Assembly (NCBI GenBank): GCA_903864505.1
Contig: CAIPGC010000103.1
Coordinates: forward strand, 97 to 64,096
Length of the DNA: 64,000 nt
Direction of reading: 5' to 3'
Source: an uncultured beta proteobacterium
Lineage (GTDB): Bacteria > Pseudomonadota > Gammaproteobacteria > Burkholderiales > Burkholderiaceae_C
Part shown: in pieces, positions 41,305 to 45,249 of the stretch
How positions within the stretch are numbered: the stretch's first letter is position 1
Layout: each line of letters starts with the position of its first letter
The notes under the pieces: generated by a model
Database searches by the model: none
What the model was told of the DNA's origin: nothing
Seen by the model: only the letters and a program-made list of their open reading frames with translations
Translations under genes and position numbers: made by a program

Positions 41305-41421
41305 TTAGTAAGTAAATTTCATGGTTTCCAGCGTCAGCGAGATTGCCGTGATGGGGTTGTTTGCACTGCGGTACAGCCGGTACAGTGCGAGTGCTTCTTT
41401 GATCTTGCGAATGGATTTCAT
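41305..41421 (-). CDS. 38-aa small protein (not in ORF track)
   Basis: MKSIRKIKEALALYRLYRSANNPITAISLTLETMKFTY; ATGA overlap with the upstream gene. Confidence 0.5.
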   Translation of the reverse strand: MKSIRKIKEALALYRLYRSANNPITAISLTLETMKFTY

Positions 41422-41717
41422 AGCTTCGCAGTCACCACAGAGCGGCCCTTGCGCGCCTTGCATTGCAGAGTGGTGTCATCAATCCACATGGCATTGCCAT
41501 TGCCGCAAATCTGAATAGCTGCTGCGTTGCGGCGTTGCTGTACTTCCTGATCTTTGAAGTGGCGCTGATCGCTCTCGAATAACTCTCGGTCGAACTTGGA
41601 AGCAGCGGCAAGCCACAGACCAATGATCGTCAGGGCAACAATCGCGCATATGCAGAAGTCAATGAACAGCACCTGTAAATCGCTCAGTGCGCATGTGTCG
41701 TTGAAGTAGTTGCGCAT
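41418..41717 (-). CDS. Membrane-anchored hypothetical protein
   Basis: TM segment LFIDFCICAIVALTIIGLWLAAA. Confidence 0.6.
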   Translation of the reverse strand: MRNYFNDTCALSDLQVLFIDFCICAIVALTIIGLWLAAASKFDRELFESDQRHFKDQEVQQRRNAAAIQICGNGNAMWIDDTTLQCKARKGRSVVTAKL

Positions 41718-41719
41718 GG

Positions 41720-42052
41720 TCAGACTCCGCAGCAGAGGTCATCACGCGATGACAGGTGGCGATCTATTGCCATGTCGTCGTTGTGTTCTTTTGCTTGGAT
41801 CAGATAGCTGTCGTAGCACTCGCATTCGAGTTCTTCTATCTGCGTGAAATGCAGGAAACCTGTTACCTCGCAGTGATCTCCAAACACTCGCAGGTTTTCC
41901 ACGTCACCATCGTCTGACATATCGAAATGGCATTCGACGGACTCATTTCCTTCGCCAATGATTGCGATATGCATCCAGTTGCCCATGGTTGGCTTTGCAG
42001 GCTCTATTTGTTTCAACGCTTCTTGAAGGATTGCGTGTATTGCTGCGCTCAT
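41720..42052 (-). CDS. Hypothetical early protein
   Basis: Acidic 110-aa ORF, coupled. Confidence 0.6.
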   Translation of the reverse strand: MSAAIHAILQEALKQIEPAKPTMGNWMHIAIIGEGNESVECHFDMSDDGDVENLRVFGDHCEVTGFLHFTQIEELECECYDSYLIQAKEHNDDMAIDRHLSSRDDLCCGV

Positions 42053-42252
42053 TGCGACACCTCAACGCGCCGTGGTGTGTGGCGCAAGTCAACCAGATCG
42101 ATCGCTGCCTGCGCTTGGACTCGCGCTGGGTGCAAGGGGTTGGGGAAATAGCCAACCATGGTCTTGGTTGCCTCAAGCAAGTCCAATGCTGCTATCGGGT
42201 AGTCTTGAAAGAACCTTGCGGCAGATCCAGGCGCATACAGTTTGATTTCCAT
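42049..42252 (-). CDS. First gene of the pL operon (67 aa)
   Basis: ATG at 42252 preceded by RBS GGAG. Confidence 0.6.
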   Translation of the reverse strand: MEIKLYAPGSAARFFQDYPIAALDLLEATKTMVGYFPNPLHPARVQAQAAIDLVDLRHTPRRVEVSQ

Positions 42253-42547
42253 GCCAACTCCATCGGTTTGATGAACAGATCGAATAAGGCGGGACTCTGG
42301 TGACTGGCCAGATGACCCTAAGGGCTTTGTGCTACCGCGCCACGATTCCAATGGCACCCCTTCGACGGCCCTGCTTTGCTACCTGCTGTCACACATTCAC
42401 AGGAACCCGCCTTATTCGATCTACCTTGTCGCTTCAAACACATCGGAGCTAGCTCCTAGACCGCAGGTAGTGATTTGCCCGCTTTGCTCTCCCGTTGCGT
42501 ACTGGATCGCTCTGGGAATGTCGTCTCGCGTTTGATTGCGATGAGTT

Positions 42548-42576
42548 AATGTAGCAAAAGGCTAAATTAAAGTCAA
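42548..42576 (-). promoter_or_regulatory. pL promoter overlapped by OL operators
   Basis: TTGACT-17-TACATT on the minus strand; TAGC-N5-GCTA boxes at 42552-42564 and 42575-42587. Confidence 0.85.
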
Positions 42577-42618
42577 GCATAAAGCTAATGTAAGAGCTAA
42601 AATATTTCCACGAGGCGT

Positions 42619-42642
42619 AAAAAAACCCGCACATGGCGGGTT
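42619..42642 (-). terminator. Terminator of the cI operon
   Basis: AACCCGC-loop-GCGGGTT hairpin with a T7 run on the minus strand. Confidence 0.8.
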
Positions 42643-42662
42643 GTTGGTAAATTGTCCGTGGT

Positions 42663-43007
42663 CTAGTCGGGCTTCTTTGCGATCGCTATTTTTGCCAGAT
42701 CAAAGAGCAAAGTAATGATAGTTGCCAGCACCAGCACTGACGATCCCAAGATTATCAAAATGTCTTTTCCGCTGATTGACTTGTCCGTCCACCCCGTTGA
42801 TATGATCAAGTAGGAGTAAAACCCAATGAGCAACAACTCTGTGAGAATTGCGCGATTTTCGGGACTGAATGCAACTTTGATCTTCGCCCTGGTGGTCTCT
42901 GCGACTGCAAATTTCTTAGCCGTTGCCCAGAGCCAAATGATTACCTCTTTGGCTATCACGCTGACAACAGCAGTGACTGCAATCGTGGTTAGCTGGTTAG
43001 TTTCCAA
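42663..43007 (-). CDS. 3-TM membrane protein in the immunity region
   Basis: Three hydrophobic segments; downstream of cI. Confidence 0.7.
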   Translation of the reverse strand: METNQLTTIAVTAVVSVIAKEVIIWLWATAKKFAVAETTRAKIKVAFSPENRAILTELLLIGFYSYLIISTGWTDKSISGKDILIILGSSVLVLATIITLLFDLAKIAIAKKPD

Positions 43008-43080
43008 AGTACGCTCCTAAATCAGCATCCATAGATTGCGGGCAGTCGCTCACATTCTTCATGCGCCCCAAGGGGCGAGC

Positions 43081-43512
43081 TTATTTTGGACACCACTTTT
43101 CACCCGGGCAATGGCGACTCTCCAGTGCTTCCGCAGATGCGCGGTTCAATCTGAAGATTTCCGCGTTGGCTTGTGCCGTGATCTTGAAAGCATCCCAGCA
43201 TGCCTTCGAGATCTCCGGAGCATTGGGAAACTCAACGGCGTCCGCTTGGCACTCTGCACGATCTCGAATCATTGTCGCTGTAATCTCGCGGGCGGCCCCC
43301 GTTGCTTCTGCGTACTGTGATGCAATTCGCTCTTTCTCGTTGGGAGAATTCCACCATGCTACAAAAAACGATACAAACAAAATAATCCCCCAAAGCCTCC
43401 AAACGCCCCAATCCTTTTGGTTTTTCTTTTCTGGGCGTTTTGTACTTCGAAGTTCACTAAGGAGCTTTTCAACATCCGCTGCTTGGTCAGTGGGGCGGTG
43501 TATTTCGCTCAT
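43081..43512 (-). CDS. Single-TM protein with Cys-containing C-terminal domain
   Basis: WRLWGIILFVSFFVAWW TM and four Cys; starts 2 nt after the cI stop. Confidence 0.7.
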   Translation of the reverse strand: MSEIHRPTDQAADVEKLLSELRSTKRPEKKNQKDWGVWRLWGIILFVSFFVAWWNSPNEKERIASQYAEATGAAREITATMIRDRAECQADAVEFPNAPEISKACWDAFKITAQANAEIFRLNRASAEALESRHCPGEKWCPK

Positions 43513-43514
43513 CG

Positions 43515-44213
43515 TTAATCATCCTCCCACTTCCCAATCACGGTTCCAAGCACTCTAAATGGCTCAATGATGGGAGGGTGTGAGGTGTTCAGCGGGGCAA
43601 GCCACTTTCGACCATCCTCTTCCTTGTATACCTTAAATGTCACAGCGTCAGAGCCAACCAGCTTCGCAATGATTCGATCACCGTTGGCCGGCATGTTCTT
43701 GCTTGGGTCAACGATTATGTAACACCCGGCAGGATAAGACTTTCCGAATGGAGCTGTCATCGAGTCTCCATTCACGCGCAGCGCATAAGTGCATGTGCTG
43801 TGACCTCGAATGATTGGCAGGTAACGCTCTGCGTCACCCGGCTGGAATAGGTCCTGGGCTTCATGCCACGACCCCGCTTGCACCCAAGAAATCACTGGAA
43901 CCTCCCCGGTGAACGCTCTTGCGGCATCCACGTTCCCAACATTAATTTTTGATTTGCTCATCCTTGCTTCTACGTCAAGGGAATGATCGGCATCCATCCA
44001 ACCAAGTTGCTTGCCCATTTTGCCTTCAATGTAGCGAGCGGTCTTTGTGCTCATGCCGCGCTGCTTCCCAGTCCCGGAATTTATCGACCCAAGTTTCCAT
44101 TGGCTCACCTGGGAGTCGCTTCGTTCGAGACGTGCACTCAACTTTGACAAGCCGCCGCATTCCGCCTCAAGGGCTGCAATGTTTTCACGGCGGATTTCAT
44201 CAATTGGCTTCAT
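43515..44213 (-). CDS. cI: CI-like repressor (HTH + S24 peptidase)
   Basis: N-terminal HTH; VPVISWVQAG, YALRVNGDSM and VTFK autoproteolysis motifs. Confidence 0.93.
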   Translation of the reverse strand: MKPIDEIRRENIAALEAECGGLSKLSARLERSDSQVSQWKLGSINSGTGKQRGMSTKTARYIEGKMGKQLGWMDADHSLDVEARMSKSKINVGNVDAARAFTGEVPVISWVQAGSWHEAQDLFQPGDAERYLPIIRGHSTCTYALRVNGDSMTAPFGKSYPAGCYIIVDPSKNMPANGDRIIAKLVGSDAVTFKVYKEEDGRKWLAPLNTSHPPIIEPFRVLGTVIGKWEDD

Positions 44214-44227
44214 GAAATGGCATTGTG

Positions 44228-44291
44228 TAGCGTAAAGCTAAGAAAAAGAATTAGCGAAAGGCTTGCGTTAGCGTTAGCTTTAGGCTAAAGT
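44228..44291. promoter_or_regulatory. OR1-3 operators and pR
   Basis: TAGC-N5-GCT(A/T) at 44228, 44252 and 44275; pR TTGCGT(44263)-17-TAAAGT(44286). Confidence 0.82.
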
Positions 44292-44298
44292 GACGCAC

Positions 44299-44574
44299 AT
44301 GAACCTTTATGACTATTTCCAGCAAGAGGGCCGGGGCGTAGCGACAAGAGTCGCGAAATCGATTGGAGCCCACGTGCCCGATGTATCCGACTGGGCTAAT
44401 GGCAATCGCCCAATACCAATCAAATTCGGAGCGCCAATTGAGTTGGCAACCAACAAAGCTGTGACCAGGCAAGAGATGTTTCCAGAGGATTGGAAGCAGA
44501 TTTGGCCAGAGCTGATCGGCATTGACGGGTCTCCCGCAACCACCCCTCAACCAGAAGGAGTGGCGAATGTCTGA
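44299..44574 (+). CDS. cro: Cro / YdaS-like regulator
   Basis: Divergent from cI; VAKSIGAHVPDVSDWANGNRPIP...IELAT..AVTRQEMFPEDW..IWPEL. Confidence 0.88.
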   Translation: MNLYDYFQQEGRGVATRVAKSIGAHVPDVSDWANGNRPIPIKFGAPIELATNKAVTRQEMFPEDWKQIWPELIGIDGSPATTPQPEGVANV

Positions 44575-44842
44575 TCTACCCCTTATCGCAGCAACAGAGT
44601 GGGCGCGTGCGCATTCCGGCCGCTCATTCGACCCAATTGCATTTGGCAAGGATGTAGCCCTTGTGTACTGCGCTTGTGAAAAGACGCTGTTCAACGCAGG
44701 CGACGAAAAGGCTATGGCTGCGGCGTTAGCTTCGTTATCAGTTCCGAGCGAAGTGTGGCAATCGCTTGCGCAGCTTTCTTCGCTGCTTCGTCGCTCGACA
44801 ACGGAGCAACAGCCAACGCATTCGGACAGTGCTGAATCATGA
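44567..44842 (+). CDS. Hypothetical protein after cro
   Basis: RBS AGGAG; 8-nt overlap with cro. Confidence 0.55.
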   Translation: MSDLPLIAATEWARAHSGRSFDPIAFGKDVALVYCACEKTLFNAGDEKAMAAALASLSVPSEVWQSLAQLSSLLRRSTTEQQPTHSDSAES

Positions 44843-44888
44843 GTTTGATGATGTCCGTTGCCAAGCTGGCAGCATTTACTTCTTGCAT
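44712..44888 (-). CDS. 58-aa antisense protein
   Basis: RBS AAGGGA 5 nt before ATG; helical sequence MQEVNAASLATDIIKLMIQ... Confidence 0.5.
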   Translation of the reverse strand: MQEVNAASLATDIIKLMIQHCPNALAVAPLSSDEAAKKAAQAIATLRSELITKLTPQP

Positions 44889-44976
44889 GGTGTTCCCTTT
44901 CGGTAGCGTGTTGTGGAACTCGCAGTTTATGCCGATTGGGAACACCGCCAATCAAAACAGCCAAGGAGTCTGACCC

Positions 44977-45249
44977 ATGGACTCCATTGACGACTGTTCG
45001 TTCGCGCGCTCCAGTTCGAGCGACGTATTCGGAAAACTTGATGCCGAACTCCCGCCAGTTCGCATCAGCGCCGATGTCCTCTCTGAAGTGCACAAGCTGG
45101 CCAGCGCTGCAGGGATGAACTTGAGCGAGTACCTGCGCACCATGGTTCACGTCAGAGTGTTTGGCATTGAGCATGTTCTAACTCTACAAGCTGATCGCCT
45201 TCGCCGCGCCATGGGCAATGCAGAGCAATTGCAAAGCGAGAAGCAATGA
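44977..45249 (+). CDS. CII-position regulator (RHH-like)
   Basis: VRISADVLSEVHKLASAAGMNLSEYLR pattern; RBS AAGGAG. Confidence 0.6.
   Translation: MDSIDDCSFARSSSSDVFGKLDAELPPVRISADVLSEVHKLASAAGMNLSEYLRTMVHVRVFGIEHVLTLQADRLRRAMGNAEQLQSEKQ

Follow-up and report, generated by a model that had tools for sequence, protein, structure and literature searches.

The textbook example of an early phage message controlled by a host RNase is the N leader of lambda, where the enzyme recognizes a large hairpin and thereby sets how much of the first phage protein is made; this RNase control of N couples the lysis–lysogeny decision to host physiology. In the dicBF leaders of cryptic lambdoid prophages, the small RNA DicF (RF00039) is cut from the early transcript by RNase III/RNase E. 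The put RNA of HK022, which acts in protein-independent antitermination, measures about 70 nt, consists of two hairpins, and occurs as putL and putR in both early operons. The RNase III sites of T7 and T3 are located between the genes of polycistronic RNA and contain an internal bubble, whereas retron non-coding RNAs are characterized by inverted repeats around msr-msd and a reverse transcriptase gene directly downstream. Processing by RNase III is described as established for the large hairpin in the N leader of lambda (Steege et al. 1987, cited in PMC5371410; Wilson et al. 2002, cited in PMC7315355), and long hairpins read by host RNase III are also described for the early transcripts of T7 and T3 (PMC5371410).

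The leader analyzed here belongs to a temperate phage located in the window, i.e., the whole 64-kb stretch of DNA that was analyzed. Its immunity region comprises an S24-type repressor gene and a cro-like gene. The operator motif TTAGC-N5-GCTAA is present three times at pR, between these two genes (starting at 44227, 44251, and 44274; 44227–44288), with spacings of 24 and 23 bp, and twice at pL with a spacing of 23 bp. This operator set defines the immunity specificity of the phage. The features of the region are as follows:

44290–44574, plus strand: cro-like gene
43515–44213, minus strand: S24-type (cI-like) repressor gene
42624–42642, minus strand: intrinsic terminator of the repressor (cI-like) operon, just 5' of pL
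42551–42588, overlapping pL: operators OL1 (42551–42565) and OL2 (42574–42588), motif TTAGC-N5-GCTAA
42548–42576, minus strand: pL, sigma-70-like, with −35 TTGACT, 17 nt, and TG-TACATT
42253–42541, minus strand: untranslated leader of the early-left operon, about 289 nt
42049–42261, minus strand: first early-left gene with SD GGAG (42261–42258), AUG at 42252–42250, and a 67-aa product

A standard pL at 42576–42548 is supported by these elements, and the early-left transcript probably starts at about 42541. As this start and the AUG at 42252 enclose 289 nt, the untranslated leader matches the coordinates of the structured, non-coding pL leader of about 290 nt that had been proposed in a sequence-only reading of the window. 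For the RNA transcribed from the minus strand between 42560 and 42240, the predicted folding energy is −111.4 kcal/mol (z = −3.04 vs. dinucleotide shuffles). No conserved ORF was found in the leader, ARAGORN detected no tRNA or tmRNA in it, and a cmscan search of 41500–43500 against Rfam returned zero matches inside 42253–42541, even at E ≤ 10. Downstream of the leader, the gene order is 67 aa, 110 aa, 99 aa, then Bet/RecT, and then a RecE-like exonuclease. The first three of these genes are without a meaningful Pfam or PHROG match, the only match being a marginal one of the 99-aa protein to phrog_16606 (E = 0.003). The 67-aa product has no arginine-rich N-terminus; it was modelled as a three-helix bundle (pLDDT 70.6), for which no PDB fold match was obtained, and it has no family match either. 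The lack of Pfam and PHROG matches agrees with the earlier statement that no N-like antiterminator is recognizable.

The arms of the inverted repeat (42277–42293 and 42406–42422) are complementary at 17 of 17 positions across a spacer of 112 nt, exactly at the coordinates given for it before. A scan for perfect arms of at least 13 bp with spacers of 20–200 nt revealed this repeat as the sole match in the 64-kb window, and by our own arithmetic about 7e-4 such 17-bp repeats would be expected by chance. From 5' to 3', the leader comprises the following parts, with remarks on the leader variants of two other phage contigs, L096 and L099, which are described below:

42520–42537, minus strand: 5'-terminal segment AAUCAAACGCGAGACGAC, kept in all three leader variants
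42462–42519, minus strand: poorly conserved segment with indels in L096 and L099; contains the 5' half of the crossing pair discussed below
42445–42456, minus strand: small hairpin P0, GGAGCUAGCUCC, with a compensatory change of G-C to A-U in L096; absent (deleted) in L099
42423–42446, minus strand: conserved 5' flank CCGAUGUGUUUGAAGCGACAAGGU, 24 nt, the same in L099 up to the first base of the hairpin
42406–42422, minus strand: 5' arm of the long stem P1, AGAUCGAAUAAGGCGGG in RNA sense
42294–42405, minus strand: interior ("cargo"), 112 nt, with a multi-branched consensus fold
42403–42368, 42357–42337, and 42312–42296, minus strand: branches of the interior, i.e., P2, an apical 7-bp hairpin, and a CUGG hairpin, respectively
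42296–42312, minus strand: hairpin P6, UCUGG-N7-CCAGA, with a variable loop and a closing pair changed from U-A to A-U in L096 (compensatory)
42277–42293, minus strand: 3' arm of P1, CCCGCCUUAUUCGAUCU
42259–42275, minus strand: small SD hairpin UUCAUC-AAACC-GAUGGA, with an invariant stem and a loop that varies in L096

In total, the hairpin measures 146 nt and is closed by a perfect helix of 17–18 bp, 15 nt 5' of the RBS of the first gene. The small SD hairpin sequesters GGA, the first three bases of the SD. In the single-sequence fold, which is rod-like, the helix reaches GGAG (42261–42258), and the SD has a predicted probability of 0.00 of being unpaired, which bears out an extension of the stem to the RBS. 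The 5'-terminal segment AAUCAAACGCGAGACGAC is complementary to UGUGUUUGA at 42441–42433; a long-range helix between the two is possible, and no covariation was seen there. The interior also contains a direct repeat on the minus strand, GGUAGCAAAGC at 42383–42369 and GGUAGCACAAAGC at 42331–42317, of which the portion GUAGCAAA equals the left half of OL1 (GTAGCAAAAGGCTAA), either by chance or as a weak repressor half-site.

Folding the lambda pL–N region with the same tool gave a 223-nt leader with boxB followed by a 124-nt hairpin (z = −2.84), whose closing helix of 16 bp leaves about 8 nt to the N SD. Both leaders occupy the same place on the map, i.e., the immunity region, pL, a long untranslated leader, and the first early-left gene, and in both a small hairpin is followed by a large one that is closed by a long helix shortly before the SD. 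Compared to lambda, the leader described here measures 289 vs. 223 nt, the hairpin 146 vs. 124 nt, and the closing helix 17–18 vs. 16 bp, with z-values of −3.04 vs. −2.84. However, the two share no sequence similarity, a boxA/boxB nut site is missing here, the first gene is not N-like, and a perfect stem with a strongly conserved interior stands against the irregular stem of lambda. The match in anatomy favors the suggestion, made from the sequence before, of an RNase III-controlled leader as in lambda N. Starting from the observed position, transcription signals, fold, conserved pairing, and recurrent architecture of the hairpin, we see about even chances that it is a cis-acting double-stranded RNA domain for processing and translation control of the lambda N-leader type. 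By this analogy, it would be a variation on a known theme, the RNase III hairpin of the lambda N leader.

In such a leader, RNase III, which is encoded in the host genome, would have the long double-stranded stem as its substrate. Folding or cutting of the hairpin, together with the adjoining SD hairpin, would set the translation of the first early gene(s) and the stability of the message, and the conserved inner RNA might be released by processing. For the intact leader, the SD is predicted to be unpaired with a probability of 0.00 in the window, 0.08 in L096, and 0.75 in L099; a simulated cut of the stem shifted these values to 0.23, 0.14, and 0.46, respectively, i.e., the SD was not consistently opened. 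Two further points count against this explanation. A lambda-type reading is weakened by the lack of a recognizable nut site or N protein, and a plain RNase III stem would need no interior conserved to 99%. Release of an RNA by processing at double-stranded stems is conceivable as in dicBF, which resembles this locus in that a non-coding stretch heads a prophage early operon; unlike in dicBF, the leader has no match to RF00039 and no terminator-type 3' end. In contrast to the sites of T7 and T3, the putative RNase III site is located in a 5' leader and encloses a branched interior of 112 nt.

Seven other assemblies contain an identical phage, with 0 differences over 42040–42700. The sole diverged lineage is represented by the JGI contigs L005 and L096; the product of their first gene shares 92% identity with that of the window. 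As the other copies of the phage show no variation, covariation draws on L096 (and on L099 for the architecture), and only two sequence variants of the 17-bp-stem element were available for it. The stem in L096 is still complementary at 17 of 17 positions, since a U>G change at 42419 is matched by an A>C change at 42280 (U-A to G-C). This is a double transversion without a wobble intermediate, and the chance of both substitutions falling on one pair and leaving it complementary is about 0.01 for a pre-specified helix (own arithmetic). Together with the compensatory changes in the two small hairpins P0 and P6, a total of 3 pairs is compensated, and 0 of the 60 predicted consensus pairs are broken in L096. 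A control with slid partners gave 0–1 compensatory pairs vs. 3 real ones, and RNAalifold applied to shuffled controls of two sequences found at least 3 compensatory pairs in 3–4% of them. Coming from two sequences, the compensatory evidence is suggestive rather than conclusive. A second pairing put forward in the sequence-only reading, an 8-bp pair crossing the stem (42379–42386 with 42463–42470), is present in the sequence and can be extended to 42379–42390/42459–42470 (11 of 12 positions), but it is not conserved, as its 5' partner (42459–42470) is replaced in L096 and no equivalent pairing exists there.

Nucleotide conservation is uneven along the leader. Window and L096 differ at 1 position in the 98 nt from 42317 to 42414, a core of about 99% identity, and this core includes the interior stretch 42317–42405 with 1 change. 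By comparison, the coding sequence differs by about 17%, and flanks and coding regions are roughly 65–83% identical. Because 9 of 22 positions differ in the patch 42316–42295, and because the 5' leader at 42462–42519 is heavily diverged and carries indels, the conserved block is bounded at both ends. We regard the leader hairpin as a genuine, constrained structured element. In 3.8 kb of alignment, four distinct patches reach at least 97% identity in 90-nt windows, namely the leader core and three patches in coding regions; since three of the four fall in coding regions, a gene-conversion patch is possible.

The phage on L099 is related to that of the window by its repressor gene (75% nucleotide identity) and pL (92%), and the first 18 nt of the transcript as well as the 24-nt CCGAUGUGUUUGAAGCGACAAGGU are identical. 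The −35 element of pL is conserved in both L096 and L099. The terminator of the repressor operon is kept in L096, whereas L099 has a different hairpin and T-run at that position. Directly after CCGAUGUGUUUGAAGCGACAAGGU, L099 contains an unrelated perfect hairpin (L099:3591–3692) with 19-bp arms and a 64-nt interior; 13 nt separate it from the SD of the first gene, which is likewise a different one (95 aa). Equal architecture in the same place, built from unrelated sequence, speaks for preservation of the long helix as such.

We extended the comparison to 80 viral contigs that were picked solely for a Bet relative, with 49 unrelated viral contigs (about 450 kb) as controls. Perfect stems of at least 13 bp (13–18 bp, interiors of 37–164 nt) were found 17 times in 15 of the 80 Bet contigs, and none were found in the 49 control contigs. 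Nearly all of them are located 0.3–3.7 kb upstream of bet. Several of the long hairpins are followed by an SD and start codon within 22–42 nt, and many have a small hairpin directly 5'. The homologous pair L040/L042 revealed 4 compensatory pairs in the long stem and hairpins conserved at both ends of the interior, while the MAFFT alignment of L035 and L047 was too poor for use. As the interiors share no common motif and a covariance model of the core (R1) matches none of them, the long hairpins are, judged by their sequences, a class by architecture and not a sequence family.

Is the long stem kept at the RNA level? An explanation at the DNA level would take the arms as inverted sites for a DNA-binding protein (looping, recombination, or replication) or as the ends of an old miniature insertion, kept identical by template switching and not by RNA function. 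In line with this, the stem is purely Watson–Crick, with zero G-U pairs in 17–19 bp in window and L099 alike, the compensating double transversion is impossible via a wobble intermediate, and homology with L099 breaks exactly at the base of the hairpin. Furthermore, strand asymmetry was not detected in three tests: sense folding energy was favored over antisense in 13 of 20 cases, G-U vs. A-C at the stem edges amounted to 13 vs. 8, and a relaxed stem scan of the two strands gave 24 vs. 23 matches, which marks the relaxed criterion as noisy. The pure Watson–Crick stem and the double transversion fit concerted evolution of the arms at the DNA level as well as they fit selection on the RNA. Against the DNA level stand the compensations in the two small local hairpins, which a DNA-site model does not predict, three G-U pairs that lengthen the stem on the transcribed strand only, and the place of the element inside a transcribed leader, 15 nt from the SD. 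The P0 and P6 compensations, the three sense-strand G-U pairs, the transcribed position, and the lambda precedent constitute the support for the RNA level, and we judge the DNA-level explanation in its two forms, taken jointly, to be improbable. A miniature inverted-repeat element was considered separately and rejected, with 1 copy in the genome, 0 copies in 100 relatives, and flanks of AC / AC without a clear target duplication at the ends. The single copy and its absence from the 100 relatives show that this is not a multicopy mobile element. A retron non-coding RNA was likewise rejected, as no reverse transcriptase is encoded downstream, where the genes are those for the 67-, 110-, and 99-aa proteins, Bet/RecT, and the RecE-like exonuclease.

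Homologues of the element were searched for widely. The leader DNA had no match in the phage collection, lambda included, and was absent from 100 related genomes, where only a 27-nt chance match appeared. Scans for the arm/core pattern in viral, metagenome, and genome contigs returned chance matches only, and the same applies to all 49 matches obtained in viral contigs with the pattern of the conserved flank. Neither in 400 genomes of the family nor in 87 related loci was a homologue detected with the covariance model R1; its one match in the family genomes was rejected, as it overlaps the end of an apparent antitoxin (BrnA-like) gene. The 67-aa first-gene protein was not found in viral, genome, and metagenome collections, and a search of 5.8 billion proteins revealed one cluster only.

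These results bear on the role of the interior. The stem might be only an excision signal or scaffold, with the 112-nt interior as the functional part, either as a stable non-coding RNA released from the first phage transcript or as a ligand or protein sensor for the early operon or the host. The absence of interior homologues from the 400 family genomes, the 87 related loci, the viral, genome, and metagenome collections, and Rfam argues against this explanation, as do the lack of a motif common to the interiors of other long hairpins and the possible gene-conversion patch. Nevertheless, the interior is far better conserved than flanks and coding regions (1 change in about 98 nt) and has a sharp edge at 42317, its multi-branched consensus fold includes a covarying small hairpin, and in L099 both the interior and the first gene are different ones. 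On balance, we consider a functional interior behind a mere excision stem unlikely. A broader form of this idea, which we hold to be doubtful, is that temperate phages of the Bet/RecE type carry uncatalogued "perfect stem plus cargo" modules in their pL leaders, in which the stem would be a processing signal and the interchangeable interior a functional RNA. The interior could then act as a released regulatory or decoy RNA, or as a sensor matched to the first early gene.

Returning to processing and translation control in the manner of lambda N, the lambda-like leader architecture recurs in uncultured freshwater phages without N and without a nut site. The recurrent leader hairpins are unrelated in sequence and interchangeable, and their stems are kept by compensation, which suggests that the general feature is the hairpin itself rather than N autoregulation. 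If the conserved interior is a released RNA or a sensor, it would represent a new family of phage non-coding RNAs; if it is not a functional RNA, the leader would contain an ordinary but well-documented hairpin for processing and translation control.

The leader could also modify RNA polymerase in cis and cause read-through of early-left terminators, as a put-like RNA or an atypical nut site, which the sequence-only reading had listed among its options. Like put of HK022, it is a structured RNA just 3' of pL in a phage without a recognizable N-like protein, and small hairpins adjoin the long hairpins in several related phages. Unlike put, it is present in single copy in its own genome: neither the pR operon nor any other region has a second copy, no segment of at least 11 nt is common to leader and pR transcript, and no boxA or second nut-like copy was found when the two were compared. 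With 146 nt and an 18-bp stem, it is also much larger than the two-hairpin put RNA of about 70 nt and has a long perfect stem in its place. No terminators to overcome are evident in the stretch covered, as a consensus scan of 41500–45000 for intrinsic terminators predicted none on the minus strand from 41500 to 42540, leader included. Furthermore, L099 swaps in an unrelated hairpin under the same promoter. Antitermination of this kind is therefore very unlikely.

Translation within the leader would offer another route to regulation of the downstream gene. A 41-codon ORF (42443–42318) has its AUG in the conserved 5' flank, nine bases downstream of AGGAG; it spans the 5' arm, and its stop coincides with the edge of the conserved block, so that ribosomes translating a leader peptide would melt the stem. 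The AUG is shared by L099, where it opens an ORF of 11 codons that terminates within the stem, and in L096 a GUG and a 1-nt deletion preserve the frame. However, the AUG itself is lost in L096 (CAG), and the SD, which is weak in both L096 and L099, is buried in P0 in the window. An open frame of 40 codons arises by chance in about 15% of frames (own arithmetic), and both substitutions in the ORF body are non-synonymous, with 0 synonymous ones over about 33 codons, a pattern unlike that of a coding sequence. We regard regulation by a leader peptide as highly improbable. The 41-aa ORF was also rejected as a gene, as its start is not conserved.

Regarding other observations at these loci, L096 encodes a Tad2-like protein (PF11195) a short distance upstream of its pL and in the opposite orientation (L096:1378–2034), and two membrane-protein genes are located at the counterpart position in the window. 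Between the 99-aa gene and bet, a 38-aa micro-ORF at about 41305–41421 (minus strand) may be a conserved small gene; a micro-ORF was also called at the equivalent place in L087, L090, L091, L100, L101, and L104.

Small hairpins at the edges of the long ones were seen in several related phages. A boxB-like hairpin of approximately AAUGCGCAGGCUGAUGCGC (5-bp stem, 6–7-nt loop) recurs in L015, L020, L035, L040, L042, and L047, where it is placed directly 3' of the long hairpin or forms its first inner hairpin. In L040 and L042, this hairpin has the loop GCUGAU, whose complement AUCAGC occurs in the last inner hairpin, so that a kissing contact is possible. A small hairpin adjoins the 5' side of the long hairpin in L035 (L035:3139–3158) and L047 (L047:2261–2278); its loop UCGUAAG is identical in both, whereas the stems are wholly different (GACUGG/CCAGUC vs. 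CACCC/GGGUG). The same loop on different stems is the pattern of a protein-binding hairpin and may indicate one here. Finally, a relative without a long hairpin, L100, has a short leader (L100:2780–2845) in which the SD is buried in a 7-bp helix, CACUCCA/UGGAGUG, with the boxB-like hairpin GCCCU-ACCGAAC-AGGGC located between the two strands of this helix.
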